Below, one piece after another: positions 3,747-31,822 of a stretch of 64,000 bases of DNA. The translations under genes were made by a program, and so were the position numbers. The stretch is taken from contig JBFMCS010000051.1 in NCBI GenBank assembly GCA_040754315.1, positions 74,840-138,839 of the forward strand. The letters are read 5' to 3'. This stretch comes from Bacillota bacterium. Its GTDB lineage: Bacteria; Bacillota; Sulfobacillia; DUSP01; JBFMCS01. How positions within the stretch are numbered: the stretch's first letter is position 1; every line of letters begins with the position of its first letter. Below the pieces are notes generated by a model. That model was given only the letters and a program-made list of their open reading frames with translations. It was not told where the DNA came from and searched no databases.

Positions 3747-4038
3747 ACATCACTTTGACAACGAGGGCAGGATCACCTGGTTTTTCCTGGGGTCGATTTT
3801 CAAAAACCCTCCCCTATCCATGACCAAAAATCCCACGTATGCACTCTCCCGTGGGGTAAACCTTTTCTTCCCTCAACTATACTCCGTGCTCAGCCCATCC
3901 GTTTTATACAACGCAAATGGCTCGTAAAACAATCTTTCGGACTGAACGCCACAGACCAGACACAGAGAACCAGATTGGCAACTTCGCCGCTTATGTAAGA
4001 AGACCCACCGCATCTTGGCGGGCCTTACTGGTCTTAAC

Positions 4039-4114
4039 TGGTCGGAGCGGCCGGACTTGAACCGGCGACCTCATGGTCCCGAACCATGCGCGCTACCGTC
4101 TGCGCTACGCCCCG
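4039..4114 (-). tRNA. tRNA-Pro (anticodon CGG), 76 nt with encoded CCA
   Basis: A cloverleaf was folded by hand on the reverse complement. The acceptor is CGGGGCG/CGCTCCG with one G-U pair. The D-arm is GCGC/GCGC. The anticodon stem is CATGG/CCATG with loop TTCGGGA. The T-arm is GCCGG-TTCAAGT-CCGGC. The discriminator is A and CCA follows. Confidence 0.9.
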
Positions 4115-4307
4115 ACCGTATCAGCCTCCATTATACCCTTCAAGGTCGTGAACAGTCAATAAAACCCGTCCAGCGGTCCAGCGAGTAAGAAACTACACCG
4201 CTGCTAAGGCATGACTGTGCGAGCGACTCTCGCTACACTGTCCCAGGTCATGGTGGCACCCAATCCCTCGGCCAACGCCCCAATTGGCATCATGGTCCTA
4301 CCAGGGT

Positions 4308-9511: not shown

Positions 9512-10048
9512 ATGGCCGTCATCGATGGCTCGCTCTTCGGCCCGGGTGATATCCTGAGGCTGACCTGGGATGACGTGATGGAGCTCTGCAAGGACCTGGC
9601 CCAGGCCATCCACGAGGAGTTCAATCCCGACCTCATCGTGGGGGTGGCCAAGGGCGGCGTTATACCCGGTGTCATCATCTCCTCTCTCCTCAGGAAGGAC
9701 TTCGTTCCCGTGAGCCTCTCACGGAGGCATCGCGATCGTGTGGTCCACTCGCTGCCTCAGGTTCTGGTGCCCCTGAGCCCGGAGGTTGAGGGTCACTCAC
9801 TCCTTATAGTTGACGAGACGTCCGCTACGGGAGAAACCTTCCAGATGACTTTAAGGGAGGCGCACAGGAAGGGTGCCAGGAAGGTGAAGACTGCCGCCCT
9901 CTATGTTCCCGGGGCCGGGTACATGCCCAACTGGTATGCCCTGCAGACTGACGCCCTGGTGATGAAGCCCTGGGACTTTGAGGTCCTGGAAAACGACAGG
10001 TTTGTCATCCGGAAGGAGTATCTGGCGCAGATGGATCGCCTTGGATAG
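9512..10048 (+). CDS. Phosphoribosyltransferase-family protein
   Basis: Type I PRTase PRPP-binding motif LLIVDETSATGETF. The start was chosen at MAVIDGS. Confidence 0.65.
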   Translation: MAVIDGSLFGPGDILRLTWDDVMELCKDLAQAIHEEFNPDLIVGVAKGGVIPGVIISSLLRKDFVPVSLSRRHRDRVVHSLPQVLVPLSPEVEGHSLLIVDETSATGETFQMTLREAHRKGARKVKTAALYVPGAGYMPNWYALQTDALVMKPWDFEVLENDRFVIRKEYLAQMDRLG

Positions 10049-10058
10049 GGGGAGCATC

Positions 10059-11441
10059 TTGGGTCCGAAGGGTCTCCTGGCGTTGCATACGGGGAAGATC
10101 GCCATGCTGGCCAGCAGGGTAACGGGACGAGGGGGATCGACCCTTCCCGGCAGGCTGGCCTTGAAGATAGAGCCTGGCCTCATGAGGCACCTGGCTGGGC
10201 AGGCCCGGCGCTCCGTGATGGTGACGGGCACCAACGGCAAGACCACCACGGCTAGCCTGCTGGCCAGCATTCTCCGGCAGACGGGGGAAGGTGTGGTACA
10301 CAACGGCTCCGGGGCGAACCTCATCCCCGGGGTGACCTCGGCCCTCATCGGTGCCGCCAGCCCAGCGGGAAGGCTCAAGGCAGGTTGGGCCGTGCTGGAG
10401 GTAGACGAGGCAACAGTACCGCTGTTTCTACGGCAGGTCAGGCCTGATGTCTCTATAGTGACCAACTTCTTCCGGGACCAGCTGGACCGGTACGGTGAGA
10501 TAGAACACATAGTGGACCTGGTCAAGCAGGGCCTTTCCATGCTGCCGGATACCTCCTGGGTAGTGCTGAACGCCGATGACCCAATGGTGAGCGGGCTTGC
10601 CCAGGGGCTCGAGGCCCGGGTGCTCCACTACGGCCTTGACTTGCCCGAGATGACCTCAGGGGTGGGCTCCCACGCCGTGGACGTGAGGCACTGCAGGGTG
10701 TGTGACACGCCCTACTCCTACCAGGGCTACTACTACGCGCACCTGGGCATCTACCATTGCCCCAGCTGCGGCCGTGAGCGGCCCGCCCTCTCGGTCAAGG
10801 CGAGCAGGGTCGAACCGGCGGGCACTCGCGGCACAGGGGTGGTGCTTGGCTTCCCCGACGGGTCCTCCGAAAGGGTCTTCGTCCGGGTCCCCGGCCTCTA
10901 CAATGTCTATAACGTGCTGGCGGCCGCCACCGCCGCCTGGCGCCTGGGAGTCTTTCCAGCAAACATTAAGGCTGGGATCGAGGCGTTCCTGGCCGCCTTC
11001 GGCCGCATGGAGGAGGTCCGGATAAAGGGGCGCCGGGTGTTCCTGGCCCTGGCGAAGAACCCTGCCGGCTTCAACGAGGTTCTAAGGACCATCGGGGCCG
11101 ACCAGGGGGACAAGACGCTGCTCATCGCCATTAATGACAACACCGCCGATGGCAAGGATGTGTCGTGGCTGTGGGACGTGGACTTTGAGGTCCTGGCGGA
11201 GGAGGGCGCGCTCCGCGCCGTGGTGGCCTCTGGGATCAGGGCGGAGGACATGGCATTGAGGCTGAAGTATGGGGGGGTAGACCCCTCCCGGATTCGCTGG
11301 GACACGGACATCATGGCCGCTCTGGAGAGCGCGCTCCGCAAGACCCCGCCCGGGGAGGTGCTCTACGTGCTCCCCACCTACACAGCAATGCTTGATCTCC
11401 GGGGGAGGCTAGCGCGGAGGGGACTGGTGAAGCCTTGGTAG
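10059..11441 (+). CDS. murT: Lipid II isoglutaminyl synthase subunit MurT (Mur-ligase-like, with DUF1727-type C-terminus)
   Basis: Mur ligase P-loop VMVTGTNGKTTTASLLASIL. Cys4 ribbon CRVCDTPYSY ... HCPSCG. It is directly followed by and overlaps a GatD-like gene. Confidence 0.85.
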   Translation: MGPKGLLALHTGKIAMLASRVTGRGGSTLPGRLALKIEPGLMRHLAGQARRSVMVTGTNGKTTTASLLASILRQTGEGVVHNGSGANLIPGVTSALIGAASPAGRLKAGWAVLEVDEATVPLFLRQVRPDVSIVTNFFRDQLDRYGEIEHIVDLVKQGLSMLPDTSWVVLNADDPMVSGLAQGLEARVLHYGLDLPEMTSGVGSHAVDVRHCRVCDTPYSYQGYYYAHLGIYHCPSCGRERPALSVKASRVEPAGTRGTGVVLGFPDGSSERVFVRVPGLYNVYNVLAAATAAWRLGVFPANIKAGIEAFLAAFGRMEEVRIKGRRVFLALAKNPAGFNEVLRTIGADQGDKTLLIAINDNTADGKDVSWLWDVDFEVLAEEGALRAVVASGIRAEDMALRLKYGGVDPSRIRWDTDIMAALESALRKTPPGEVLYVLPTYTAMLDLRGRLARRGLVKPW

Positions 11442-12175
11442 GCCGAGGGGTGCTGAAGATATGCCACCTGTATCCTGACCTCATGAATCTGTACGGTGAC
11501 AGGGGCAACGTGATATGCCTGTGCCGCAGGGCCCAGTGGCGCGGGATCCGTCCTGAGGTTACTTGGGTGTCCCTGGGGACCAACCTGGACTTTGCCCAGT
11601 TCGACCTCATCTTCATGGGGGGCGGCCAGGACAGGGAGCAGCTCAGCGTGTGCCAGGACTTCCAGAGGGTCAAGGGGTCAAGCCTCCGGGAGGCGGTAGA
11701 GGCCGGTGTGGTGTGCCTTGCCATCTGCGGGGGATACCAGCTCATGGGCCACTCCTACAGCACCCACGATGGAAAGACCCTCCCTGGCATAGGGGTTATG
11801 GATGTGGTGACCCAGGCGGGCAAGAAACGCCTGATAGGCAATGTTGTCGTGGAGTCGGACCTCACAGGAGGCACCCTGGTGGGTTTCGAGAACCACTCGG
11901 GAAAGACCTACCTAGGCCCTAGTGTCAAGCCCCTGGGCCGTGTGGTCCAGGGCTACGGGAATAACGGTGAGGACGGTTGCGAGGGGGCTCTCTACAGGGG
12001 CCTGGTGGGCACGTACCTTCACGGCTCCCTCCTGCCCAAGAACCCTCGCCTGGCAGACTACCTCATAGAATCCGCCTTGAGAAGGAGGGACCCGGCTTTT
12101 TGCCTGGAGCCCCTGGATGATACCATCGAGATGGTAGCCCACCAGGCTGCCGTCAAGCGGGCTAAGGCCCGGTGA
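11435..12175 (+). CDS. gatD: Glutamine amidotransferase GatD (CobB/CobQ-like), partner of MurT
   Basis: LKICHLYPDLMNLYGDRGNVI, FMGGGQDREQ and catalytic ICGGYQLMG match GatD. Its start overlaps the murT stop, which suggests translational coupling. Confidence 0.85.
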   Translation: MVGRGVLKICHLYPDLMNLYGDRGNVICLCRRAQWRGIRPEVTWVSLGTNLDFAQFDLIFMGGGQDREQLSVCQDFQRVKGSSLREAVEAGVVCLAICGGYQLMGHSYSTHDGKTLPGIGVMDVVTQAGKKRLIGNVVVESDLTGGTLVGFENHSGKTYLGPSVKPLGRVVQGYGNNGEDGCEGALYRGLVGTYLHGSLLPKNPRLADYLIESALRRRDPAFCLEPLDDTIEMVAHQAAVKRAKAR

Positions 12176-13767: not shown

Positions 13768-14190
13768 ATGAAGGGCCTCGGGATAGTGGTGGTAGGGCCG
13801 TGCGCTTCGGGCAAGACTACACTGGTGGAAGCGCTGCGGGCCATGGGTTTTGAGGGCGCCTACTCGGTGCCCCAGGAGCACTCGGTGGCGCCCATGCTGT
13901 GGCGGGTCAAGAACCCGGACGTCCTGGTGTTCCTGGATGCATCTTACAGTGCCATCCGGAGGCGGCGCCCCGTGTCATGGGGTCCGGATCGCCTGGGGCT
14001 CCAGCAGAACCGCCTGTCCGGGGCCAGGAGCCAGTGTGACGTCTACCTGGATACCAGCGACCTCACCCGCCAGGAAATGATAGATTCCATCACCGGACAA
14101 GTCATGGGAAGGGACTGGAAAGATGAGCATAGTCACCCTGGAGACAGTGAAGAAGGACCCCGAGGTCCAGACATACCTCAGGAGGGGTAA
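13768..14190 (+). CDS. P-loop NTPase of unknown function
   Basis: Walker A motif GPCASGKTT near the N-terminus. There is no further recognisable family signature. The 3' end overlaps the next gene. Confidence 0.4.
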   Translation: MKGLGIVVVGPCASGKTTLVEALRAMGFEGAYSVPQEHSVAPMLWRVKNPDVLVFLDASYSAIRRRRPVSWGPDRLGLQQNRLSGARSQCDVYLDTSDLTRQEMIDSITGQVMGRDWKDEHSHPGDSEEGPRGPDIPQEG

Positions 14191-14791
14191 TGACCACCTT
14201 GGGTGCATCGGCTATACCGAGCATGGGCTGCGCCACGCAGACCTTGCCGCGAGCATCGCGCGGAACGTGCTTTCTCACCTGCAACACCCCGAGAGGGAGG
14301 CGGAGCTGGCAGCCATCGCCGGTTACCTGCACGATATAGGCAACGTGGTGAGCCGCTACGGGCACGGCCAGACCGGCGCCGTCATCGCCATGGGCATCCT
14401 CTCCAGGCTGGGGATGCCACACGGGGAGATCGCTAGCGTGGCATCGGCCATTGGCAACCATGACCCTGAGGAACTGGGCGCCTCGGTGAACAACGTGGCC
14501 GCCGCGCTGATCCTGGCGGACAAGTCCGATGTTCACCGGTCCCGGGTGCGGAACTGCGACAGGTCATCCTTTGACATCCATGACAGGGTGAACTACGCGG
14601 TGGAACGCTCCTTCCTGAGGGTAGATGGCAAGAAGAAGACTATCACCCTGGAGATCACCGTTGACACCAGCATATCCCCTGTGATGGACTACTTCGAGAT
14701 ATTCCTCGCTCGGATGCTTATGTGCCGGAGGGCCGCATCCTACCTGGAGTGTAACTTTGAACTGAGCATAAACGATGTGCGGCTGCTTTGA
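14123..14791 (+). CDS. HD-domain metal-dependent phosphohydrolase
   Basis: IGYTEHGLRHA ... YLHDIGN ... is an HD motif arrangement. Confidence 0.65.
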   Translation: MSIVTLETVKKDPEVQTYLRRGNDHLGCIGYTEHGLRHADLAASIARNVLSHLQHPEREAELAAIAGYLHDIGNVVSRYGHGQTGAVIAMGILSRLGMPHGEIASVASAIGNHDPEELGASVNNVAAALILADKSDVHRSRVRNCDRSSFDIHDRVNYAVERSFLRVDGKKKTITLEITVDTSISPVMDYFEIFLARMLMCRRAASYLECNFELSINDVRLL

Positions 14792-20429: not shown

Positions 20430-21818
20430 GTGATGAACGCATCGCCGCAGGGACACGTGGACGAGGACATCCAACTTCACAGAATCGGAGGGGTATCGAA
20501 CTTGACAAAGACCAGAGTGCTCATCATGGGGGCTGCGGGGAGAGACTTCCACAACTTCAATGTCTTCTTCAGGGATAACCCCGCCTACGAAGTAGTATGC
20601 TTCACTGCTGCGCAGATCCCGGACATCGAAGGGCGACTCTACCCGCCCGCCCTCTCCGGGCGCATGTACCCGGACGGGATCCCCATCTTCGCCGAGGCGG
20701 ACCTGGAGACCTTGATAGATAAGCACGGCATCCAGCAGGTGGTGTTCGCCTACAGCGACGTGTCTCACGAGTTCGTGATGCACCAGGCCTCCAGGGCCCT
20801 TGCCAAGGGACCGGACTACGTCTTGATGGGCCCACGAAGCACGGGCCTGAAGTCATCCAAGAAGGTAGTCGGCATCGGTGCCGTGAGGACGGGGTCCGGC
20901 AAGAGCCAGACCACGCGCAGGGTATGCAAGGTCCTCAAGGATATGGGCAAGGTCCCCGTTGTTGTGCGTCACCCCATGCCCTACGGAGACCTGTCCGTCC
21001 AGGTGTGCCAGCGGTTTGCCACCTACGGAGACCTCGACAAGCACAAGTGCACCATCGAGGAAAGGGAGGAGTACGAGCCCCACATCGATGCGGGTACCGT
21101 GGTGTATGCTGGCGTGGACTACGAGGCCATCCTCAGGCAGGCTGAGGCCGAGGCGGACGTGGTGGTGTGGGACGGAGGCAACAACGACCTGCCCTTCTAC
21201 GTGCCAGACCTCTACCTGGTAGTGGCTGACCCCCATAGGCCGGGACACGAAACCCGGTATCACCCAGGGGAGGCTAACCTCCGCATGGCGGACGTGGTGG
21301 TCATCAACAAGATAGACACAGCGGACTACGCTGGCGTGGCAAGGGTCAGGGAGAGCATAGTTTCACTGAACCCCAGGGCGAGAGTGGTTGACGCAGCCTC
21401 ACCCATGACCGTGGACGACCCCGATGCCATCCGGGGCAAGGCGGTGCTGGTCATCGAGGACGGGCCCACACTGACCCATGGTGAGATGGCCTACGGTGCG
21501 GGGGTCATGGCCGCCAGGAAGTTCGGTGCCGCCAATCTCCTAGACCCCAGGCCCTATGCGGTGGGCAGCATCAAGGCGACCTTCACCAAGTACCCGCATA
21601 TGGGGCCCTTGCTCCCCGCCATGGGATACGGGGACGCGCAGGTGGCCGAGCTAGAAAAAACCATCAACGCCTGCCCCGTTGACCTGGTGGTGGCGGCAAC
21701 ACCCATCGACCTGAGACGCGTGGCGAAGATGCAGAAGCCCGCAGTGCGAGTAAGGTACGAGCTGCAGGAGATCGGGAGGCCCAACCTGGAGGACATACTC
21801 AAGGACCTCTGGCGTTAG
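20430..21818 (+). CDS. Cyclic 2,3-diphosphoglycerate synthetase-like P-loop protein (cDPGS family)
   Basis: About 460 aa. N-terminal RVLIMGAAGRDFHNFNVFFRDN and internal P-loop AVRTGSGKSQTT match cDPGS-like proteins as I recall that family. The true start is probably downstream of 20430. Confidence 0.5.
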   Translation: MMNASPQGHVDEDIQLHRIGGVSNLTKTRVLIMGAAGRDFHNFNVFFRDNPAYEVVCFTAAQIPDIEGRLYPPALSGRMYPDGIPIFAEADLETLIDKHGIQQVVFAYSDVSHEFVMHQASRALAKGPDYVLMGPRSTGLKSSKKVVGIGAVRTGSGKSQTTRRVCKVLKDMGKVPVVVRHPMPYGDLSVQVCQRFATYGDLDKHKCTIEEREEYEPHIDAGTVVYAGVDYEAILRQAEAEADVVVWDGGNNDLPFYVPDLYLVVADPHRPGHETRYHPGEANLRMADVVVINKIDTADYAGVARVRESIVSLNPRARVVDAASPMTVDDPDAIRGKAVLVIEDGPTLTHGEMAYGAGVMAARKFGAANLLDPRPYAVGSIKATFTKYPHMGPLLPAMGYGDAQVAELEKTINACPVDLVVAATPIDLRRVAKMQKPAVRVRYELQEIGRPNLEDILKDLWR

Positions 21819-23379: not shown

Positions 23380-23770
23380 GCACCCACCCTGAAAATATTC
23401 CGGGCAGCGTTCAGATCCCGATCATGTTTTGCGCTACATACCGGGCAGGTCCACTCTCTCATAGTGAGAGACAGATCATCCAATACGTGGCCGCAATAGA
23501 AACAGGTCTTAGACGATGAATAGAATCTGGGGATTTCGACTACCGCCGCTCCAGTCTTGGCGCACTGGAGATCTTTGTACCCTAGAGTCTTTTCATCGCC
23601 TTGAGGTTCAGATCCTCGACGCAGATCAGCGAGTACTTTTCAGCCAGTTCTTTCGCCAGGGCGATCCGGTGTGCCCTGGCAAGTTCGATCCTGGCTCTCT
23701 CGCGGTTTTGGGAATCCTTCTCTTTGCGGGACAGAGACCTGTTTAGATTGCGGATCTCTTTATTGCCTCG
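23380..23770 (-). mobile_element. tnpB: IS200/IS605-family TnpB (OrfB) remnant with a premature stop, an internal deletion and no N-terminal domain
   Basis: Minus-strand translation gives EIRNLNRSLSRKEKDSQNRERARIELARAHRIALAKELAEKYSLICVEDLNLKAMKRL* (the TnpB middle region with the RuvC-II EDLN motif). A further ~50 nt on, in another frame, it gives SKTCFYCGHVLDDLSLTMREWTCPVCSAKHDRDLNAARNIF (zinc finger plus RuvC-III). Confidence 0.6.
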
Positions 23771-23771
23771 C

Positions 23772-24070
23772 CTGGCCCTTTATACCAGGCATTGAAGTAG
23801 TGATGCTCACCGGGGACAGCCACGTGGCAGCCAAGGTACCGGAGCAGATGGGGATCCAGCGTTTCCTTACGGGGGGCTCTCCCCCACGAGTAAGCCGGGA
23901 TGGTACAGGTCCTCATAGAGGAAGGGAAGGTCGTGGTCATGGTAGGCGACGGCGGGAACGACACCCCCCCTGGCGGCGGGTGTGGGGGTCTTTGGGGGCG
24001 GCCACCGGTGTGTCCGCAAGAAAGGGACATCCTCCAGGGCCTGTCCAGGGTACCTATCACAAGATGGCAG
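23772..24070 (+). pseudogene. P-type (heavy-metal) ATPase internal fragment with a frameshift and an in-frame stop
   Basis: GIEVVMLTGDSHVAAKVPEQMGIQRFL matches the HAD-domain segment VMLTGD ... GI. In the next frame, ALPHE*AGMVQVLIEEGKVVVMVGDGGNDTP matches the VLPHEK ... MVGDGINDAP hinge. There is no sequence for the A-domain, the TM helices or the C-terminus. Confidence 0.6.
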
Positions 24071-24417
24071 AAAACCTTGTATGGACTACAGGCTCCAATG
24101 TCGTACCGCTGGCCTAGGGGCCCCGGCCCTGGGGTTTCACGCTCCCAACGCCGGTAGCGGACTTGGCAATACCGACGAGCCCCATTGCTGTGGCCCCGAA
24201 CTCCCAGCTCCTTCGGGGGGTCGCAGCGCCGGTATCTTGGCTCTCCTTCGTGCGAGGCTCCGTGTCAACCCACCTAAGAATGTTACCCAAGAGAGATCTT
24301 GTGAAACCTTTGAGCATGTGATAGTTTAAATAATGAGGTCAAGCCTCTTCTGGCCGGGCATATGCAGCGGTACTACCGCGGGACTTCCACAGCGAAGCCC
24401 GCTTTTCTTGTGGGGGG

Positions 24418-25296
24418 ATGGCCGTGCTCCGGGAAGAACGTCTCAGACAAGGCCAGACTGGTGCCTTGGTGGGGATAATGGGAAATCTGCTCCTAGGTGC
24501 CGCCAAGGTGGCGGCGGGATCCCTGGCATCCTCCCACGCCATGCTGGCCGACGGGCTCCACTCCCTGGCGGATTTCGCAAGCTCCATAGCCCTCCTGGTG
24601 GTGGTCCGGGTGGCCAACCGGCCCTCTGACACCTGTCACCCCTACGGGCACGGCAAGGCCGAGCCCGTTGGCGCCAAGATCATAGGGATTATAGTGGTCC
24701 TGGCAGGGTTCCAGATCGGGCTTTCGGCAATAGGGCAGCTCAGGGCGGGGAACTACGCTGCCCCGGGGGTCCTGGCCCTGTGGATGGCGTTGATATCCAT
24801 CGTGGTGAAGGAGACTATGTTCCGCTACAAGTTTCGCCTGGCCACGAGGGCGAACTCCAAGGCCATCCTAGCCAGCGCCTGGGAACACCGCTCGGATGCC
24901 GTTTCCTCCGTGGCGGTCCTGGCCGGGGTGGGACTTGCACGCCTTGGGATGCCCTACCTGGATCCTGTGGCCGGCCTTTTGGTCTCCGGCTTCATAGTCA
25001 AGATGGGCTGGGACATAACCCGCAGCGCTGTGGATGACCTCATGGACAAGGTGACCGACCTGCCCCTCCTGGACCGTGTGTGCCGGGCAGCCTCCGAGAC
25101 CGCCGGCGTCATCAGGGTGGATGCCGCCAGGATCCGCCCAATGGGCCCTGATTTCCTGGTTGACCTGGCAATTTGCGTGGACCCACAGATCACTGTCAAG
25201 GAAGGCCATGACGTTGCCTCAAGCGTGAAGTCAGCGGTCATGATCGCAATCCCCGAGGTGGCCGGTGTCATGGTGCATGTGAACCCCTGCCGGTAG
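24418..25296 (+). CDS. Cation diffusion facilitator (CDF) family divalent-metal efflux transporter
   Basis: TM1-2 signature HAMLADGLHSLADF. HPYGHGKAEP. Six TM segments followed by a cytoplasmic C-terminal domain. Confidence 0.85.
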   Translation: MAVLREERLRQGQTGALVGIMGNLLLGAAKVAAGSLASSHAMLADGLHSLADFASSIALLVVVRVANRPSDTCHPYGHGKAEPVGAKIIGIIVVLAGFQIGLSAIGQLRAGNYAAPGVLALWMALISIVVKETMFRYKFRLATRANSKAILASAWEHRSDAVSSVAVLAGVGLARLGMPYLDPVAGLLVSGFIVKMGWDITRSAVDDLMDKVTDLPLLDRVCRAASETAGVIRVDAARIRPMGPDFLVDLAICVDPQITVKEGHDVASSVKSAVMIAIPEVAGVMVHVNPCR

Positions 25297-25416
25297 CCTC
25301 ACCCAGGCCAGGCAAGATTTTTCCAGCATCCAAATCCCCCCGCAAGTCCTCTTATCTCCCTTCCGCCGGGACATACTACACTTTGCCAGAAACACAAGGC
25401 ACGGGAGGGACAACCT

Positions 25417-26769
25417 ATGATGCGACAGTACCAGGCCCTCATACGCCATGAGGGCAATGACGCGCTATTCAGGGCCATTGACATGTCCGTGGTCTCCACG
25501 CTGGAGAACGTTCCCCTTCACATCCATGTCGAGGGGCTCAGGGGCACGGGGAAGACCACCATCATGCGGGCGGCCCGCTCAGTGCTTCCCCCCATTACCC
25601 GGGTTAAGGGCTGCCTCTACAACTGCGACTCAGAGAGACCCCACTGCCCTGACCATCGTGGTCTTGACCGTAAGACCCTGAAGGAATTGGGCACTGAGGC
25701 ATGCCCCATGCCCTTCCTGGAGATCTCGGCCTCAGTGAAGATGGGTACTGCCGTGGGAAGCCTGGACCTGGCTCGCATCACCAACAGGTCGCAACCGGAC
25801 GCGGCGCTCCTGCCGGGCACCATACCCCAGGCGCACCGTGGCATACTCTTCATCGATGAGATCAACCGCCTGGCGGAGACAGCGCCCGAGATTGCCGACG
25901 TACTCCTGGGGGTCATGGGGACAAAGCCCGGCATCATCAAGGTGGAGGAGACAGGCCTGCCCCCGGTGACCATGCCTATAACCGTCTCGGTCTGGGCGGC
26001 GTCCAATCCGGATGAAGACCCCGGCCCGCTAGAGGATATCAGGAAGCAGCTCTCCGACAGGTTCGACCTAGGGGTGGGCACACAGCGCCCCTCGGACGCC
26101 GGCTGCGTCCTAGACATCCTCCGTGACTGCCAGGCAGCAGCCCCTGGCGAGCACTCCAGGAAGGCCCAGGAGTTCCTGGCGGCCCTGGCCTTTCTCGACG
26201 AGGTTCACCTCCCGTGGGCAATAAGAAACGTCATAGCCGGGCTCTACGTGGAGTTCCAGCTGGAGAGCCTCAGGGCGGTAGAGGCACTCCAGGCCTGTTC
26301 CCGCCTGACGGCAGCGCTGGAGAGGAGCCGGGAGGTGAGGCTGGACCACCTGGCGGCGGTGGTGCCCCTGGTCTTGAAGCACCGGGTGGACCTATCTGCC
26401 ATGGAGAAGATAGTGGAGCGCCTCCTGGAGTCCAAGGACGATAACCAAGACGTGGCTGGGGCCAAACCTGGGCCCCAAGGCGCCCGGGCCAAGAGCCAGG
26501 ACAAGGAGGCCAAGCCTGCGGGATCCCTCCACCGCATGGTGACGGACCTGAGGAACAAGCTCTTCCCGGGCAGCAACGGGGAAGGCCAGGGCCAGCCCGG
26601 GGCGGGGAACAGGCGCTCCTCACCGGGCAACGATCACCCAGGGATGTCCGGCATGGGTTCTTCCTCGGCCTCGGTGCCCCTGACGTGCCCGCCGCTTCTT
26701 GCGTGCCCCCTGGCCAAGCTGCGCTCTGACGAGGTCCTCAGGGGAGAAGAGGAGCTAATGTCACGGTGA
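25417..26769 (+). CDS. ChlI/BchI-family AAA+ ATPase (Mg-chelatase-I-like) with a Cys-rich insertion and a low-complexity Pro/Gly-rich tail
   Basis: Walker A GLRGTGKTT. Walker B/sensor region GILFIDEINRL. A ChlI-like arginine-finger region DRFDL. Insertion CLYNCDSERPHCPDH ... C. The C-terminal ~120 aa are low-complexity. Confidence 0.7.
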   Translation: MMRQYQALIRHEGNDALFRAIDMSVVSTLENVPLHIHVEGLRGTGKTTIMRAARSVLPPITRVKGCLYNCDSERPHCPDHRGLDRKTLKELGTEACPMPFLEISASVKMGTAVGSLDLARITNRSQPDAALLPGTIPQAHRGILFIDEINRLAETAPEIADVLLGVMGTKPGIIKVEETGLPPVTMPITVSVWAASNPDEDPGPLEDIRKQLSDRFDLGVGTQRPSDAGCVLDILRDCQAAAPGEHSRKAQEFLAALAFLDEVHLPWAIRNVIAGLYVEFQLESLRAVEALQACSRLTAALERSREVRLDHLAAVVPLVLKHRVDLSAMEKIVERLLESKDDNQDVAGAKPGPQGARAKSQDKEAKPAGSLHRMVTDLRNKLFPGSNGEGQGQPGAGNRRSSPGNDHPGMSGMGSSSASVPLTCPPLLACPLAKLRSDEVLRGEEELMSR

Positions 26770-28424
26770 GGCAGCTCATAGGATTGGCGGCGGGGCTCAG
26801 GGAGCGTCTCCACAGGGGCGCCGTGCGAATAGGGGAGGCGTGTTGCGCCAGTTACTTCGTCCACTGCATAGACCCCTCCGTGCCCGAGGAGGTAAGGGTG
26901 CTCCCCCGGTGTGACGCTGGGGGGACCTTCTACGGGCGGGCGAATCCTGGCGAGATAATCCACCTGGATATATTTCACGACGTGGGCCTGGTAGTTCCCC
27001 AGCCCCTGGCCCGGGCATGCCGCGAGGCCATTGCTCGCTACCGCGGCGACACCGGGGGTGAGGTCTCAGCAGACCTGATAGACATCCAAACAGGTGGCGG
27101 AGGGGGGCGCATTACCGGGCATCTCCACGGGGGGAGGCTGGAGAGCCTGAAGAGGGCCCACATGAACCACGTGCACCTGGCCTGCGGCATCGGCCAGGAG
27201 AGCCTGGGTGTCCTTTTCTACCTGGTATCAGCGGTAGAAGACGAGGTGTCCAGGCAGGGCCTCCACATACGCAAGGTGGAACGCGTCAGGCGAGATATCC
27301 AGGCACAACCCACGCCCGAGGAGCTCTCCCACTACAGGGCCACCTCCGACTCCAACCTCAGGCAAGGAAATAACACGCCTTCCCCTCGCCAAGTCCAGGA
27401 TATCCACAACCTCAGGCTGGCCCTGGAGCTGGCCGAGGAGGTAGACGGTGCCTCCAACTTGCAGCATGCCCTGGAGTCCTTCGGGCCAGGTGGGCAGGCT
27501 GAGACGGGCTCAGCCCCGGTGCCCAGGGATGTGATAGAAACCCTCAGGGTACGCAGGCTCCTGGAGAGGGACGGCCTCACGTACCGCCTCACGGAGGAGG
27601 GCATAGCCCTGAGGAACTTCCTGCGAACTCACCGGAAGGAGATGGAGATGCACCTCCGCCGCATAGTGAGGCGCCTGCCCAGGGGCGCCGTGCCCAGGGC
27701 TTGCCAGCAGGGGAAGCCCTGCAAGGGCCAGGGGAGGCGGGGTCCGGGACCCAGGGCAGCAAAGGCTGTGGACGGTGAGTGGGCAGAAGAACTGGCAGTG
27801 GCTGAGACGGTGATTTCCTCAGCGGGCCGGTGCGCGGAGAGGAGTATCATCATACTGCCAGAGGACCTGTGGGTGGTCCACTATAAGAGCCGGAGATACT
27901 CTGACATATGCCTCCTTTTGGACGCCAGCGCCAGCATGGCGGGGCGCCGCATTAGGACCGGCAAGTACCTGGCCAGGCACCTTCTGCTCAAAAGCAAGGG
28001 GCGGATGGCGGTGATAACCTTCCAGGAGAGTCGCGTGGACATCAGGGTTCCCCTCACAAGGAGCTTCGATGAGGCCGAAAGGGGGCTGGGGGCCATCGTG
28101 CCCCAGGGCCTCACCCCCATGGCCCAGGGCATACTGGCGGCGGTGAAGTACATGAAGGAGGCCAGGGCGAGAAACCCCCTCATACTCATGATCACTGACG
28201 GGATACCCACGGTTGCCCTGAGGACCGCCAATCCCGTGGCCGACGCCCTGGCGTCAGCGGAGGAGATCCCGGAGGCCCGGGTGGACTTCGCCTGTGTCGG
28301 GCTGGAACCCAACAGGGGATTCCTGGACGAGCTGGCGAGGCGAGCTGAGGGTGCCCTCTACGTCCTGGAGGAGCTGGAAAAGGAAGATCTCGCACGAATC
28401 CTACAAAAAGAGTCCTCGAAGTAG
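26766..28424 (+). CDS. VWA-domain protein (ChlD-like C-terminus) with a large N-terminal domain of unknown function
   Basis: The C-terminal 190 aa are a von Willebrand A domain with a MIDAS motif (LLLDASASMAG ... ITDG). The N-terminal 350 aa resemble no AAA domain. There is a winged-helix-like stretch (LTYRLTEEGIALRNFL). Its start overlaps the upstream ATPase stop. Confidence 0.65.
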   Translation: MRQLIGLAAGLRERLHRGAVRIGEACCASYFVHCIDPSVPEEVRVLPRCDAGGTFYGRANPGEIIHLDIFHDVGLVVPQPLARACREAIARYRGDTGGEVSADLIDIQTGGGGGRITGHLHGGRLESLKRAHMNHVHLACGIGQESLGVLFYLVSAVEDEVSRQGLHIRKVERVRRDIQAQPTPEELSHYRATSDSNLRQGNNTPSPRQVQDIHNLRLALELAEEVDGASNLQHALESFGPGGQAETGSAPVPRDVIETLRVRRLLERDGLTYRLTEEGIALRNFLRTHRKEMEMHLRRIVRRLPRGAVPRACQQGKPCKGQGRRGPGPRAAKAVDGEWAEELAVAETVISSAGRCAERSIIILPEDLWVVHYKSRRYSDICLLLDASASMAGRRIRTGKYLARHLLLKSKGRMAVITFQESRVDIRVPLTRSFDEAERGLGAIVPQGLTPMAQGILAAVKYMKEARARNPLILMITDGIPTVALRTANPVADALASAEEIPEARVDFACVGLEPNRGFLDELARRAEGALYVLEELEKEDLARILQKESSK

Positions 28425-28523: not shown

Positions 28524-28880
28524 ATGTACAGGCTGATCCTGGTGCTGCTCTTTGCCTTGATTGTAGCGATGTTCGCCATACAGAACGCCCTGGTGGTGGA
28601 TGTGAACTTTCTGTTCTGGACCCTTCACGGGATCTCGCTTGCCCTGGTGATACTGGGCGCCACCGCGGCCGGAGCCACTATCGTGGGGATCCTCTACGTC
28701 TTCAGGCAGGTCCAGTTCATGAGGACCCGCAAAGACCTTCTTTCCCAGGTGAAGAAGATGGAGGGTGACCTGAAGGAGAAGTGCCTGGAGGAGAACAGGC
28801 TGAGGGAGCAGGTGGACGTCCTGCGAAAGGCCTTGGAGGCTCAGGCGGCTGGCGGTCCTGAGCCCGTTCAACAGGCCTGA
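28524..28880 (+). CDS. Small membrane protein (LapA/DUF1049-like) with a C-terminal coiled coil
   Basis: Two TM helices, then RTRKDLLSQVKKMEGDLKEK ... charged coiled-coil. Confidence 0.5.
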   Translation: MYRLILVLLFALIVAMFAIQNALVVDVNFLFWTLHGISLALVILGATAAGATIVGILYVFRQVQFMRTRKDLLSQVKKMEGDLKEKCLEENRLREQVDVLRKALEAQAAGGPEPVQQA

Positions 28881-31822
28881 TGGCTTCATTCTTCCCGCGC
28901 AGGCACCGGGAGAGAGTTCCATGGAGGGTGCTTCCCGGATGTGATGAGGGGAGCGCCCTTTCGCATAGCCTCGGCATTCACCCTGTCACTGCCCAGATCC
29001 TGGCCAGCCGCGGTATTGCCAATCCCGAGGCGGCTCGCCGCTTCCTCGATCCCCATACTCGCTACCTGGGGGATCCCTTCGATATGAAGGGGATGCCCGT
29101 GGCCGTGAAACGCCTTGAGAAAGCGTTTGAATCAGGAGAGCACGTGGCGATCTACGGGGACTACGATGTTGACGGTCTCTCCGCCACGGCCCTGCTGGTC
29201 CAGGTGTTCAGTAGCCTCGGTGTGGGGGTGTCCTGGTACATACCCCACCGCCTGGATGAGGGATACGGCGTCCATCGAGAGGCGGTGGAGGCCGTGGCGG
29301 GCCGGGGCGCATCCCTCATGGTGACGGTGGATACGGGGATAGGGGCGGCGGAGGAGGTCCGCCTTGCCCGGTCCCTGGGATTGGATGTGATAGTAACCGA
29401 CCACCACCAGGTGGTAGGACCGCTGCCGGAGGCGTGCGTGATAAACCCGCTCCAGGAGGGGTGTGCCTACCCCTTCAAGGGGCTTTGCGGGGCGGGGATT
29501 GCCTTCCAGCTGGCCAGGGCGCTTGCTACCCGGGGGCTGCTGGGAGCGGGGGGAGATGACATGGTGATGTCCCTTGTGGACCTGGCCGCCCTGGGAACCC
29601 TGGCGGACCAGGTTCCATTACTCGAGGACAACCGGATTATAGCGTGCGAGGGCATCAGGGCCATGGGGCAATCCCTCAGGGTAGGTCTCCAAGCCCTGGC
29701 TAAAGTGGCGGGCTCGAAGGGAGTGGACGAGTACAGTGTTGGGTTTGGCCTGGCGCCAAGGCTCAACGCTGCAGGTAGGATGGGCAGCCCCGAGCCGGCC
29801 CTGGATCTACTGCTCACCTCCGACGATGAGCGGGCGAAGGACCTGGCGGCCCAGCTTGAACTGCTCAATGTGGAGAGGCAGGCCACCGAGAGCATCATAC
29901 TCGAGGAGGCCGGCCACATCCTGAGCCTTGACCCGTCCCTCCTGGACGGTGTTGTGGTGCTGGCGTCCTGGGGGTGGCACCGAGGGGTGCTCGGCATAGT
30001 CGCCGCACGACTGGCCCAGGTCCACAACAGGGCCTGCATACTGGTATCTCTGGAAGACGGCATCGGGCGGGGGTCCGGGCGGAGCGTGCCCGGGGTAGAC
30101 CTCTTAGACCTGGCGGGGCGCGCCTCGGAAACCCTCTTGAGACTGGGGGGCCACTCCCAGGCCATAGGTGTGGAACTCAGGGAGGACAAAGTGGACCAGT
30201 TCAGGAGGGTACTAGGCCAGCTGGCCCCCCCTGCGCGCCCCAGGGAGGTTCTGGCGGATGCCAGGGTCTCCCTGGGGGAGATGACATCCCATCTAGCCGC
30301 TGAGATGGGGGCGCTGGCTCCCTTCGGGCACGGAAACCCCAGGCCGCTCCTGGCGGTAGGGGCGTGGGCCTGGTCTGTGAGGCCCGTGGGCAAGGACGGG
30401 GGCCACCTGCAGATGAGGCTTACGGACGAGGAAGGCTCGGTCAGCCTGGATGCCGTAGCCTTCGGAATGGCCGGGGCCCGGGATACCCTTGATGCCCCCT
30501 GTGACTTCCTAGTGAGGCTGGAGGAGGACACCTGGCGCGGCCGGAAGCGCCCCAGGGCCATAGTTGAAGACCTGCGGGCCTGGGAGGGCTGGGCCCATGA
30601 CTGGCTCAGATCCGGGGAGTATCACCGGTTTTTCGGCCACCGGGTGCTGGTTGCTTTGCCTGATGAGGTGCCGTTGATGGCCCCTGTGCCAAGGCCACCC
30701 CGGTTTCCCCCTGGTGGTCCAGTGCCTCAGGATGCCTCATGGCGGGTCCAGGACATAAGGCCGATTATGGAAAGGCTGGCTCGGGAGGCTCCGGGCCGCA
30801 CGCTGGTAGTATTGGCAGGTGCGCGGCAGGTGGTATGGTGGGCCCATCACCTCGCTATAGCTCACAGCGAACGTGCGGTGCAGGCCTGCCACGGCCTTGA
30901 GCCGGTGACGCCTCCAGATAACTACGAAGTGCTCGTGGTATCATTCGAGCTCTACCGCCAGTGGCGGCGCGCCTGCCCTAGGACATGGACGAACCCTGCC
31001 CTGGTGGCGTTCCCCGGCTGTCTTGAGGTGGAAACCTTGTCCGAAGGCAGGTGGGCGTGGGAAGAGGTGGGTCCCGACGTTACTGTTGTGGATGCCAAGC
31101 GTAACACAAACCGGGCAGCCTATGTGGAGAGCCTAGCCATGCAGGGACCGTGCTTCGTCTACACGAACACTCCCTCCAGATCCGGCCAGGTGGCAAAGGC
31201 GTTGCGCCAGGTACTGAAGCCCAAAGGGCTGGAGGCGATGTACTATCACCCTGGCCTGGGGGCGAAGGCCAGAGGCAGGCTGGCGGCGGAGTTCTCGGAA
31301 GGACACATCGCTGTCCTGGTGGGCACAGGAGCCGAGGGACTGCCCTCGAAGGGGATAGAGGTTGTCTTCTGGGACATGCCCCTGGGGCCGGCGGAGTTTC
31401 GTTTCACGTCCGCCCTCGCGCTCCCAGATGCCCGGGTGCACCTGCTATACAGCGCTGAGGATGCCGCCAGGGCGGATGCCATGGTACGCGCCGCGATGCC
31501 TGGCCGGGCGCTCCTGGTGAGCCTGTACACTGTCATAAGGGACCGTGGACCGGTTGCCTACCGGTGGCCAGAGGACATCGCAAGGATGCTCCCGGGCAAG
31601 CCTGCGAGGGCCCTGGTTTATGGCCTCGAGGTACTGATTGAACTTGGCCTGGTGCTGAAGGAGGGCACGGGCCCGTGGGCCCTAAGGGCCGTTGAGCCTG
31701 AAGAGAGGCGGGATCTGTGCGACAGCGTCAGGTTCAGGGAGGCATCCCTCATCCTCTCCGAATTCGAGGAGTGGCAGAGGCGGGCGCTGGGGGACCCGGT
31801 TCACGGACTGTCTGGCCTGTAG
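28880..31822 (+). CDS. recJ: Single-stranded-DNA exonuclease RecJ with a ~400 aa C-terminal extension that contains a helicase-C-like (RecA-fold) region
   Basis: DHH motifs (IYGDYDVDGLSA, TVDTGI, VIVTDHHQ) and DHHA1 (AAGRMG ... GGHSQAIG). The C-terminal portion has helicase motif V/VI-like text (AMYYHPGLGAKARGRLAAEFSEGHIAVLVGTGAEGLPSKGIEVVFWDMP) with no Walker A or B. Confidence 0.85.
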   Translation: MASFFPRRHRERVPWRVLPGCDEGSALSHSLGIHPVTAQILASRGIANPEAARRFLDPHTRYLGDPFDMKGMPVAVKRLEKAFESGEHVAIYGDYDVDGLSATALLVQVFSSLGVGVSWYIPHRLDEGYGVHREAVEAVAGRGASLMVTVDTGIGAAEEVRLARSLGLDVIVTDHHQVVGPLPEACVINPLQEGCAYPFKGLCGAGIAFQLARALATRGLLGAGGDDMVMSLVDLAALGTLADQVPLLEDNRIIACEGIRAMGQSLRVGLQALAKVAGSKGVDEYSVGFGLAPRLNAAGRMGSPEPALDLLLTSDDERAKDLAAQLELLNVERQATESIILEEAGHILSLDPSLLDGVVVLASWGWHRGVLGIVAARLAQVHNRACILVSLEDGIGRGSGRSVPGVDLLDLAGRASETLLRLGGHSQAIGVELREDKVDQFRRVLGQLAPPARPREVLADARVSLGEMTSHLAAEMGALAPFGHGNPRPLLAVGAWAWSVRPVGKDGGHLQMRLTDEEGSVSLDAVAFGMAGARDTLDAPCDFLVRLEEDTWRGRKRPRAIVEDLRAWEGWAHDWLRSGEYHRFFGHRVLVALPDEVPLMAPVPRPPRFPPGGPVPQDASWRVQDIRPIMERLAREAPGRTLVVLAGARQVVWWAHHLAIAHSERAVQACHGLEPVTPPDNYEVLVVSFELYRQWRRACPRTWTNPALVAFPGCLEVETLSEGRWAWEEVGPDVTVVDAKRNTNRAAYVESLAMQGPCFVYTNTPSRSGQVAKALRQVLKPKGLEAMYYHPGLGAKARGRLAAEFSEGHIAVLVGTGAEGLPSKGIEVVFWDMPLGPAEFRFTSALALPDARVHLLYSAEDAARADAMVRAAMPGRALLVSLYTVIRDRGPVAYRWPEDIARMLPGKPARALVYGLEVLIELGLVLKEGTGPWALRAVEPEERRDLCDSVRFREASLILSEFEEWQRRALGDPVHGLSGL

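Follow-up and report, generated by a model that had tools for sequence, protein, structure and literature searches.

AAA+/VWA protein pairs are a standard bacterial means for carrying out difficult steps in the assembly of metal centres or complexes. In CobS/CobT and in the MoxR-type pairs, it is usually a metal centre that is remodelled. The general mechanism combines the capture of a peptide by the MIDAS site with ATP-driven remodelling, and several conflict systems are also built around an AAA+/vWA pair (PMC7159879). In the class I chelatases, the I-subunit is a ChlI/BchI-type AAA+ protein, while the D-subunit consists of an AAA-like N-terminal half, a linker and a VWA domain with a MIDAS; a large porphyrin-binding subunit (ChlH/BchH/CobN), for the most part encoded close by, and an association with tetrapyrrole genes (chlorophyll, cobalamin, F430) belong to the same picture.

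Here we analyze a gene pair from a member of the Bacillota, present in a stretch of 64 kb of DNA (hereafter referred to as the window). We favor the reading that it encodes a two-part AAA+ machine that arose from the motor of a class I chelatase (ChlI plus ChlD), was re-purposed for a non-tetrapyrrole task and is made in the forespore; to this reading as a whole we assign a probability of roughly 0.45.

Architecture of the two proteins

The first gene of the pair (25417-26769; + strand; 450 amino acids), identified as an open reading frame with profile matches, encodes a ChlI/BchI-type AAA+ ATPase, and the second (26766-28424; + strand; 552 amino acids), recognized by its open reading frame and Pfam, encodes the VWA partner. 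The two genes share the four bases GTGA (26766-26769; + strand), so that translational coupling is implied, as had been proposed in a sequence-only reading of this locus; a 4-nt overlap is also the commonest arrangement among relatives (37 of 72 loci). The Shine-Dalgarno sequence of the partner gene (GAGGAG; 26749-26754) sits inside the EEE codons of the ATPase gene. As the acidic EEEL terminus of the ATPase overlaps this ribosome-binding site, it may be conserved at the nucleotide level.

When the ATPase profile was compared with the PDB, ChlI (8osf; 1.3e-30) and BchI (1g8p; 1.3e-26) were matched over amino acids 38-334, the whole AAA+ module. Foldseek searches with the AF2 model placed BchI at the top (6.8e-17) and ChlI next; the MoxR-like structure 2r44 ranked below every ChlI/BchI chain, and MCM and ComM were the next structural relatives after ChlI and MoxR. 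In Pfam, AAA_lid_2 and Mg_chelatase exceeded their cut-offs, while AAA_5 (0.044) remained under its own. The family assignment made from the sequence alone is therefore upheld. Across 20 aligned ATPase homologs (alignment A3), the Walker A motif (amino acids 40-48), the Walker B residues D147/E148, sensor 1 (N197), the arginines R209/R215 and sensor 2 (R323) are invariant and, as judged from this alignment, the protein retains all predicted catalytic motifs of a ChlI-type AAA+ ATPase.

Unlike in ChlI, one loop of the ATPase is replaced by a Cys/His motif, C66-x3-C70-x5-H76-C77-x2-H80 (25612-25656; + strand), a putative zinc knuckle that follows the Walker A helix. It is invariant in alignment A3, is modelled with a pLDDT of about 75-88 and probably binds zinc. 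Since this motif aligns gaplessly with the ChlI loop DPFNSDPSDPDL, it represents a substituted loop; the CxxC...CPDH insertion described previously is thus real and invariant as a motif, but its spacing is C-x3-C and it is not an insertion. The low-complexity tail that had likewise been noticed corresponds to a disordered, Gly/Pro/Ser-rich segment (amino acids 345-424; 26449-26688; + strand; pLDDT < 50) that varies in length and sequence among the homologs in A3. It is closed by the peptide motif APPxxARP[LI]xxL (amino acids 423-436; 26683-26724; + strand; CPPLLACPLAKL in the window), in which P425 and A429 never vary and L435 hardly does, and this peptide may dock to the partner protein. A disordered Pro/Gly-rich linker between the ATPase and VWA modules is found both in ChlI-ChlD and in the present pair, where it is part of the ATPase.

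The C-terminal part of the partner resembles ChlD/BchD, as previously noted, in that it comprises a VWA domain (27888-28400; + strand) with a complete MIDAS, whose DxSxS triplet is located at 27921-27935. Pfam detected VWA_2 over amino acids 382-479 (2.3e-10), the VWA domain of BchD (2x31) was matched at 6.4e-11, and the MIDAS residues D386-x-S388-x-S390, T450 and D478 are invariant in alignments A1 and A5. However, the AAA-like N-terminal half of ChlD/BchD is missing, and in its place the partner possesses a His/Asp-rich domain exclusive to its family and a winged helix. No match in Pfam or NCBIfam was obtained for the first approximately 340 amino acids, in agreement with the initial impression that this region lies outside known families. 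Structure prediction yielded a confident alpha/beta domain of about 180 residues (amino acids 1-180; 26766-27305; + strand; pLDDT about 90), followed by the winged helix; this domain had no sequence match in the PDB and no Foldseek match under an E-value of 0.1. The idea, raised in the sequence-only reading, that it might be a diverged ChlD AAA domain was rejected, as neither a comparison with the ATPase profile (hhalign probability 0.14%) nor the fold searches pointed to a degenerate AAA+ module.

The invariant residues of the N-domain are H33, D50-A-G52, H66, D68, H71, D106, Q108, T109, G112-G114, H132, H135, H137 and E158. H33, D50, H66, D68, H71, H135, H137 and E158 survive even in a divergent clade that represents the deepest split in the family and has lost both H132 and the DIQTGxGGGR motif. 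An exhaustive HMMER search of 1.84 billion representative proteins with the N-domain recovered 167 matches, nearly all of which have the same architecture; by this measure, the domain is exclusive to the ATPase/VWA pair among these representatives. Downstream of it lies a linker peptide, D[LM]SPYxxxSDSxL (amino acids 186-198; 27321-27359; + strand; ELSHYRATSDSNL in the window), with Y190, D195 and S196 being invariant in alignments A1/A2; model confidence is low in this segment, and the motif is absent from the divergent clade. A winged helix-turn-helix and a long helix follow (amino acids 254-302; 27525-27671; + strand), as seen from Pfam matches of family members and the AF2 model (helix 254-262, strands 266-269 and 272-275, helix 277-302). 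HTH_45 was detected in eight of 19 members and HVO_A0261_N in seven of 19, with Sso10a and MarR as weak matches by both sequence and fold. This winged helix, the confinement of the N-domain to one architecture and the forespore-type promoter-like element described below had escaped the sequence-only reading.

In gene order, the pair is similar to CobS/CobT, CoxD/CoxE, NorQ/NorD, CbbQ/CbbO and RavA/ViaA, in each of which an AAA+ gene is followed by a VWA gene with a non-AAA+ N-terminal part. The N-domain matches none of the N-terminal regions of CobT/CoxE/NorD/CbbO/ViaA-type proteins in Pfam. An adjacent, co-transcribed MIDAS-VWA gene is also a hallmark of MoxR-VWA pairs, and here the adjacent gene overlaps that of the ATPase. 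Unlike in these pairs, the ATPase is not of the MoxR type (AAA_3/AAA_5); it belongs to the chelatase branch, as indicated by Mg_chelatase, AAA_lid_2 and ChlI as the best structure.

The region upstream of the ATPase gene

A promoter-like element is present at 25352-25378 (+ strand). Its −10 sequence, GGGACATACTA (25368-25378), stands 38 nt upstream of the ATPase ATG, and a weak −35 candidate, TTATC, is located at 25352-25356. The motif G...A.A[AC]TA was found 5' of the ATPase gene in 53 of 70 loci, compared with 13 of 204 other genes and 4.3 of 70 shuffled sequences; together with a −35-like element, it was present in 46 of 70 loci and in a single one of the 204 control genes. The −35 element is poorly conserved across the loci and is particularly weak in the window. 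When both strands of the window were scanned, the full motif occurred twice, one occurrence being that upstream of the ATPase gene, and the closest relative of the locus (L082) has retained the exact −10 sequence despite differing flanks.

Among mapped Clostridioides difficile promoters, the form GG..A.A[AC]T is present in 12 of 44 that are SigF/SigG-dependent, as counted by eye, and in none of 70 that are SigE/SigK-dependent (PMC3789822). By its −35 (GHATR-like, although weak), its −10 (GG..A.A.TA-like) and its distance from the gene, the element ahead of the pair corresponds to a promoter of the forespore regulon and is, as judged from its sequence, a conserved promoter-like element of the SigF/SigG type, an assignment made by matching the consensus of a single, distant species. 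From it, we infer that both genes are transcribed inside the forespore as it develops.

The Shine-Dalgarno sequence of the ATPase gene (GGGAGGG; 25403-25409; + strand) is separated by 7 nt from the ATG at 25417, and a candidate anti-Shine-Dalgarno sequence (CCCTTCC; 25358-25364; + strand) directly precedes the −10 sequence. The two can form 7 bp, including one G.U pair. Taken alone, this duplex is not significant (p 0.15); the closest relative carries a perfect CCCTCCC at the equivalent position, and such duplexes were better than 95% of their own shuffles in 27 of 54 loci, with 2.7 expected. The location of the anti-Shine-Dalgarno sequence 5' of the predicted start site in half of the loci fits a transcript that has to start at the internal promoter in order to be translated.

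An alternative reading, which we judge to be improbable but the strongest of the competitors, assigns the pair a housekeeping role in vegetative cells, as a chaperone or a maturation factor, without any link to sporulation; the upstream motif would then be the site of another sigma factor or of a regulator. The pair indeed resides among housekeeping genes, and the poor conservation of the −35 element agrees with this proposal. SigB-type promoters also begin their −10 region with GGG. Some carriers are described as non-spore-forming, and several cultured ones, such as Thermosediminibacter and Tepidanaerobacter, are not known as spore formers, which weighs against a role in sporulation. However, where conservation is strongest, namely in A.A[AC]TA following GG, the motif agrees with the SigF/SigG class and not with GGGTAT, and no SigA-like (sigma-70-like) site was found in the intergenic region preceding the ATPase gene. 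Furthermore, the family is confined to the Bacillota, to our knowledge the sole phylum with endospores, except for a few MAGs with other labels.

Chromosomal position and competing readings

The annotated neighbors of the pair in the window are secDF, glnA, a peptidase gene, a CDF gene (24418-25296), which forms the upstream flank, lapA and recJ (28880-31822), which forms the downstream flank, followed by metabolic genes. Remnants of a P-type ATPase are discernible between 23671 and 24330 in the translations of two reading frames (VVMLTGD, MVGDGGND, ENLVWT..N); being so short, these pieces yield no Pfam score, and they represent a frameshifted remnant. The flanks are hence those given in the sequence-only reading, namely a CDF gene plus a degraded P-type ATPase on one side and recJ on the other.

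We surveyed 80 genomes/loci, nearly all of which are labelled as Bacillota. The ATPase gene lies directly upstream of the partner gene in 72 of 76 loci, i.e., wherever the contig allows it. On the same strand, recJ follows within three ORFs in 47 of 70 loci, and secD/F is found upstream in 25 of 63; the usual setting in relatives is the secDF–recJ–relA–dtd block (secDF...recJ-apt-relA-dtd). In the closest relative, the order reads CDF-pair-LapA-RecJ-RelA-Dtd-MBL-HisS-AspS, and in the Fermentithermobacillaceae the pair occupies another site, beside genes for a decarboxylase and an amidase. The same block presumably exists in Bacillota such as Bacillus subtilis as well, where no ATPase/VWA pair of this kind is known to us. 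Neither phage or plasmid relatives of the pair nor a third conserved gene or variable effector beside it were found in the surveyed loci. The pair is vertically inherited at a fixed chromosomal place in many lineages of the Bacillota.

The frequent proximity of recJ, from which the partner gene is not separated by any terminator-like site in the window, suggests a further reading, doubtful in our view: a DNA-directed machine acting together with RecJ, in which the MarR/Sso10a-like winged helix would bind DNA and the N-domain would be a metal-dependent, nuclease-like enzyme, for instance in the processing or repair of the spore chromosome. A zinc-bearing AAA+ protein would in this case act like its MCM/ComM relatives, and both the Cys/His knuckle and the structural kinship with MCM and ComM can be cited in its favor. 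Yet the adjacency to recJ belongs to the larger block, the pair is situated elsewhere in the Fermentithermobacillaceae, the ATPase is much closer to ChlI than to MCM, and the N-domain matches no nuclease family.

There is little reason to regard the pair as the I- and D-subunits of an ordinary class I tetrapyrrole chelatase for cobalt, magnesium or nickel, with CobN/ChlH encoded elsewhere, even though relatives are named magnesium chelatase subunit I or D in public records and the best NCBIfam matches are TIGR02442 (putative cobaltochelatase), BchI-ChlI and BchD-ChlD. Among curated families, TIGR02442 gives the top score with either protein: the ATPase covers its positions 29-352 (1.4e-41), and the VWA region of the partner covers 426-640 (1.1e-25). 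These are the two halves of a fused protein, suggesting that a ChlID-like ancestor was split and gained a new module at the break. However, TIGR02442 describes a single polypeptide of about 640 amino acids scoring above 779 bits, whereas here two separate genes encode proteins that reach 142.7 and 90.2 bits, one fifth of the family cut-off or less; the second protein opens with approximately 340 amino acids of novel sequence, and there is no cobalamin context. The scores against BchI-ChlI (98.5 bits; equivalog cut-off 467) and BchD-ChlD (57 bits; cut-off 499.55) are similarly low, and the partner lacks the AAA-like half that defines ChlD/BchD. Unlike at magnesium chelatase loci, neither a large subunit nor pigment genes are nearby: the longest ORF in the window measures 980 amino acids, which bears out the earlier statement that no large chelatase subunit is close by; none of the 80 related loci contains a CobN/ChlH-sized neighbor, the sole unassigned ORF of at least 950 amino acids encoding a methyltransferase; and no cob/chl or corrin genes were detected among the window ORFs scanned, nor tetrapyrrole genes among annotated window neighbors or in related loci. 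The CobQ-like GATase at 11435 has MurT as its partner, which points to peptidoglycan amidation. The fixed housekeeping position and the forespore-type promoter-like motif also speak against a chelatase.

A role in metal homeostasis together with the adjacent CDF exporter and the P-type ATPase, as implied by the metal-transport setting initially ascribed to the pair, is very unlikely. In the window and in the closest relative, the pair does directly follow a CDF gene, and the partner has a His-rich domain. However, a CDF gene is found within three ORFs upstream in only two of 76 other loci, a survey result that largely refutes this reading; all that is left of the P-type ATPase is a frameshifted remnant, and a promoter-like element of the pair's own lies between it and the CDF gene. 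The least probable reading, in which the pair would be a MoxR-vWA-type system for conflict or phage defence, echoes the central place of AAA+/vWA pairs in such systems and the former suggestion of a mobile or defence-like module, but it conflicts with the chelatase-type ATPase, with the PADLOC models, which gave no match beyond a 0.011 AAA match, with the lack of phage/plasmid relatives and of a variable effector or third component, and with a chromosomal position that is the same across classes.

Proposed action and significance

According to our preferred reading of a re-purposed chelatase motor, the ATPase would assemble into a hexameric ring like ChlI. The partner would be tethered to this ring, with the conserved C-terminal tail peptide possibly replacing the AAA-like domain that ChlD has and the partner lacks. 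Its MIDAS site would grip an acidic residue of the client or of the ATPase tail, and ATP hydrolysis would bring about a conformational step through which the putative His/Asp metal site of the N-domain acts on the client, either by inserting or extracting a metal ion or by metal-dependent hydrolysis. By analogy with nearly all AAA+/VWA pairs studied, the client would most likely be a metalloprotein or a step in the maturation of a metal centre. Only tentatively do we go further and suggest an unrecognized sporulation factor of deep-branching Bacillota: a forespore-only, chelatase-derived motor with a metal-dependent domain of an apparently new fold, for which, in half of the lineages, an anti-Shine-Dalgarno hairpin would restrict translation to transcripts that begin at the forespore promoter. 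Such a factor would load, remove or use a metal ion on a spore-specific client.

The public label of the pair as a magnesium chelatase is almost certainly wrong, and a corrected annotation would eliminate false chelatase calls from metabolic reconstructions of the organisms that carry it. The N-domain of the partner, 180 amino acids without relatives, is a target for structure determination and assay; so far, every new partner domain of an AAA+/VWA pair has indicated a new client. We know of no such ATPase/VWA pair in the Bacillus and Clostridium models. Many thermophilic and syntrophic Bacillota have inherited the pair vertically, and it occurs widely among them; if the forespore promoter is real, it would represent a conserved sporulation function that is invisible to these models.

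Gene pair and genomic neighbourhood

The ATPase gene (25417-26769; an ORF of 450 aa) and the partner gene (26766-28424; an ORF of 552 aa) lie on the same strand, and the TGA stop codon of the former overlaps the GTG start codon of the latter as GTGA. The ribosome-binding site of the ATPase gene (GGGAGGG, 25403-25409) is positioned 7 nt before its ATG start codon, and that of the partner gene (GAGGAG, 26749-26754) 11 nt upstream of its start. The two-gene observation made from the sequence alone is confirmed with small corrections. The G+C content of the window (57-66%) shows no compositional break at the pair. It dips to 53.6% only over positions 2001-4000; an ORF-poor stretch of lower G+C content (2666-5356) contains one tRNA gene (4042-4114, minus strand), and nothing else was identified there. 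This tRNA was the single Rfam match in our search, and no riboswitch or other RNA was detected near the pair.

We surveyed the neighbourhood of the pair in 80 species-level genomic loci. The ATPase gene was found immediately upstream of the partner gene in 72 of 76 loci, the remaining four being cut by contig ends, and a 4-nt overlap was the commonest junction (37/72). The recJ gene follows within three ORFs in 47 of 70 loci and secD/secF precede the pair in 25 of 63, the typical order being secD-secF-[pair]-(LapA-domain protein)-recJ-apt-relA-dtd-MBL hydrolase. At the closest related locus (L082; partner 75% identical), the order is CDF-[pair]-LapA-RecJ-RelA-Dtd-MBL-HisS-AspS. We take the secDF-recJ-apt-relA-dtd surroundings to be a conserved housekeeping block of the Bacillota, which gives the pair the look of a chromosomal resident passed on vertically. 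The label Bacillota applies to nearly all carriers; for the few MAGs labelled Ignavibacteriales, Pseudomonadota, Chloroflexota or Bacteroidota we suspect mis-binning, and at two such loci (L054 and L068) the genes are ordered as in the Bacillota.

A second context is present in the Fermentithermobacillaceae (loci L013, L023, L030, L031, L041, L042, L044, L045, L060, L062, L071 and L075). Here, the pair resides outside the secDF-recJ block, between an M20 peptidase gene and downstream genes for an Orn/Lys/Arg decarboxylase, an Amidase_3 protein (N-acetylmuramoyl-L-alanine amidase) and an F420-ligase-like protein, and the promoter-like box described below is retained upstream of it.

The sequence-only reading had placed the pair in a metal-transport setting and had considered a mobile or defence-like module, and neither proposal survived the survey. 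A gene for a CDF metal exporter, as found upstream of the pair in the window, occurs near it in only 2 of 76 loci, and a link to the CDF gene was rejected on this ground. A defence system is rejected, as PADLOC has no model for either protein, no relatives of the partner's N-terminal region occur among 50,697 phage or 72,556 plasmid records, and the pair is resident in the housekeeping block. The remark that no large chelatase subunit is nearby held: no CobN-sized gene is conserved near the pair in the surveyed loci, and the single large unassigned neighbour proved to be a methyltransferase.

Several other features of the window were recorded. Just before the intact CDF gene are the remains of a heavy-metal P-type ATPase, broken by frameshifts (23671-24330; motifs VVMLTGD, MVGDGGND and ENLVWT..N in two reading frames) and too short for a Pfam score. 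In the 980-aa RecJ protein (28880-31822), the DHH, DHHA1 and RecJ_OB domains end at residue 564, and the last ~415 residues matched no Pfam family; near-complete RecJ copies in related loci range from 567 to 1102 aa. At 9978-12172, a gene for a Mur ligase resembling MurT overlaps one for a glutamine amidotransferase of the CobQ type; the two presumably form a MurT/GatD pair for peptidoglycan amidation, rather than marking a cobalamin gene, and an L,D-transpeptidase with PG-binding domains is encoded at 6503-7447. A 462-aa protein (20430-21818) resembles, by eye, cyclic 2,3-diphosphoglycerate synthetase; its sole Pfam match, to the CobW/HypB/UreG nucleotide-binding domain, is weak (3.7e-05).

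Domain composition of the two proteins

The Pfam matches of the ATPase are AAA_lid_2 and a short Mg_chelatase match. Within NCBIfam, the best match of residues 37-366 is the fused model TIGR02442, over its N-terminal half (1.4e-41); BchI-ChlI is next (4.2e-28), and all NCBIfam scores are far under the curated cut-offs. Of the solved structures, a profile built from 20 homologs picked out ChlI and BchI alone (1.3e-30 to 1.3e-26; aa 38-334), and the AF2 model (mean pLDDT 63.8) matched BchI (1g8p; 6.8e-17) and ChlI chains, then a MoxR-like protein, MCM and ComM. Since Walker A (G40-T48), Walker B (D147, E148), N197, R209/R215 and R323 are invariant among the homologs, the protein should hydrolyse ATP. 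Equally invariant is the motif C66-x3-C70-x5-H76-C77-x2-H80, a putative zinc-binding site. Previously described as a Cys-rich insert, it aligns gap-free with the ChlI loop DPFNSDPSDPDL and thus corresponds to a replaced loop, not to an insertion. The last 100 residues of the ATPase are disordered in the AF2 model, variable among the homologs, and terminate in a conserved APPxxARP[LI]xxL peptide. The acidic EEEL run that closes the protein is encoded where the overlapping partner gene has its GAGGAG ribosome-binding site, so that its conservation at the protein level may be a by-product of a nucleotide signal; for this reason, we downgraded EEEL as a candidate MIDAS ligand.

The sole Pfam match of the partner is VWA_2 (aa 382-479), and residues 334-534 align with the C-terminal half of TIGR02442 (1.1e-25); the MIDAS residues D386, S388, S390, T450 and D478 are invariant. 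Full-length homologs (96-100% coverage) are common, and the N-terminus is therefore a conserved part of this family. An AF2 model of residues 1-345, built on 19 sequences, comprises a confident alpha/beta domain (the N-domain; aa 1-180, pLDDT about 90), a low-confidence linker with a conserved D[LM]SPYxxxSDSxL peptide, and a winged helix plus long helix (aa 254-302). Winged-helix matches were weak but recurrent (HTH_45 in 8 of 19 members, HVO_A0261_N in 7 of 19, and also Sso10a and MarR).

The N-domain lies outside known families, as had been proposed from the sequence alone. Neither the window protein nor 19 relatives gave a Pfam or NCBIfam match to it at E up to 10, its profile matched no PDB sequence, and a Foldseek search against PDB and BFVD returned nothing below E 0.01, the best matches being the winged helix and generic alpha/beta sandwiches (the aIF2-alpha C-terminal domain, KH, HPr). 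For the N-domain, PDB gave no Foldseek match under E 0.1, and BFVD none that was significant. A diverged ChlD or degenerate AAA+ domain, the first part of the outcome that the sequence-only reading had set against its own proposal, is rejected by an hhalign probability of 0.14% and the lack of an AAA+ fold match. Two H-x-[DH] strands had suggested a 2H-phosphoesterase (LigT/ThpR), which was dropped when hhalign against E. coli ThpR gave a probability of 0.23%, a weak test with a single sequence; likeness to LAS/M15/M23 peptidases, HIT or HNH came from motif reading only and found no support from any tool. An exhaustive HMMER search of 1.84 billion representative proteins with the N-domain profile yielded only 167 matches with E values of 0.001 or lower. 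Almost all of these proteins are 500-660 aa long and carry the domain N-terminally, and those that are shorter look like fragments; within this search, the N-domain is thus confined to the architecture of the partner.

Invariant N-domain residues comprise H33, D50-A-G52, H66-x-D68-x-x-H71, D106-x-Q-T, G112-G114, H132-x-N-H135-x-H137 and E158. A divergent clade (Syntrophomonadaceae and other Clostridia MAGs) has lost the glycine loop and H132 and keeps H33, D50, H66, D68, H71, H135, H137 and E158. The H-x-D and H-x-H motifs on two predicted strands, together with the other His, Asp and Glu residues, may form a metal site.

A promoter-like box upstream of the ATPase gene

When the sequences preceding the ATPase start codons were aligned, most loci proved to share a box, GG[GC]x[AC]AxA[AC]TA, which is situated 18-50 nt ahead of the start codon within sequence that is otherwise unalignable. 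Its core, G...A.A[AC]TA, is present upstream of 53 of 70 ATPase genes, compared with 13 of 204 other genes of the same loci and 4.3 of 70 shuffled ATPase upstream regions. When a -35-like element ([GT][ACT]A[TA]) was required 13-18 nt upstream of the core, these counts became 46 of 70 for the ATPase gene and 1 of 204 for other genes. The full motif occurs twice in the window (both strands, 128 kb), one copy lying exactly at 25352-25378. The -10 element of L082, GGGACATACTA, is identical to that of the window, with diverged flanks, and no sigma-70-like site was found in the 120-bp intergenic region (25297-25416) before the ATPase gene. A second GG..A.A[AC]TA box (GGCAAGACTA, 13810-13819) is intergenic and precedes an HD-domain gene (14123-14791) by about 300 nt, a distance too great for it to be called the promoter of that gene.

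We set the box against the sporulation promoters that had been mapped by experiment in C. difficile (Saujet et al., 2013, PMC3789822; Tables S6 and S7). The sigma-F/G promoters include TTGGACATAAT (spoIIR), GGGAATACTA, GGGAAAAATA and GGTAAAAATA (spoVT), and the GG..A.A[AC]T form is found in 12 of 44 of them (counted by eye) versus 0 of 70 sigma-E/K promoters. According to the same study, sigma-F promoters are distinguished by a G preceding the -10 element and sigma-G promoters by an A following it (PMC3789822); the box of the pair has both, as does spoVT. As the -35 element is weakly conserved across the loci and poor in the window, transcription of the pair in the forespore is put forward as what we infer from these likenesses. 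Literature on chelatase-like or VWA proteins in sporulation yielded nothing relevant.

In about half of the loci, the ATPase Shine-Dalgarno region has a complement in the sequence preceding the predicted start site. Perfect complements of 7 nt or more were counted in 17 of 53 loci (2.4 expected), and the duplex beats 95% of its own shuffles in 27 of 54 (2.7 expected). Examples are AAACCTCCTGC...-10...GCAGGAGGTTT in the Fermentithermobacillaceae and CCCTCCC...GGGAGGG in L082 (8605-8660); in the window, CCCTTCC (25358-25364) faces GGGAGGG (25403-25409) with one G.U pair, a pairing that alone is not significant. Loci listed with such an anti-Shine-Dalgarno sequence upstream of the box are L023, L030, L031, L038, L041, L042, L044, L045, L075 and L078. 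If the box is a promoter, the ribosome-binding site would be sequestered in read-through transcripts and free in those begun at the box, and ATPase translation may depend on transcription start at this internal promoter.

Possible function of the pair

Because the ATPase and the partner each find their best match in a different half of a single fused ChlI-ChlD-like model (TIGR02442), the simplest history would be that such a protein was split and that its second half gained a new module at its head, made up of the N-domain and the winged helix. Most studied AAA+/VWA pairs mature metal centres. AAA+/VWA pairs capture a peptide at the MIDAS site and use ATP hydrolysis to remodel the client they have bound (PMC7159879); the pair would work in the same manner, and the promoter evidence suggests the forespore as its site of action. 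Given the invariant His/Asp cluster of the partner and the metal-centre role of most studied pairs, our best guess is a metal-dependent step on some client.

A DNA-related role together with recJ is a serious rival to this metal-dependent step, as the partner carries a winged helix and the ATPase a Cys/His motif. A tetrapyrrole chelatase fares worse: its D subunit has an AAA-like half, whereas the partner has none; neither a large subunit nor pathway context is seen around the pair; and the scores are far under the cut-offs, so that the pair fails the tests for such an enzyme. Of the interpretation offered from the sequence alone, the orphan ChlI-like ATPase, the MIDAS-VWA partner and the novel N-terminus stand, while the metal-transport link and the defence-like reading fall. 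The label 'magnesium chelatase' is almost certainly a mis-annotation for this pair, which carries a domain without relatives and offers a testable link to sporulation.
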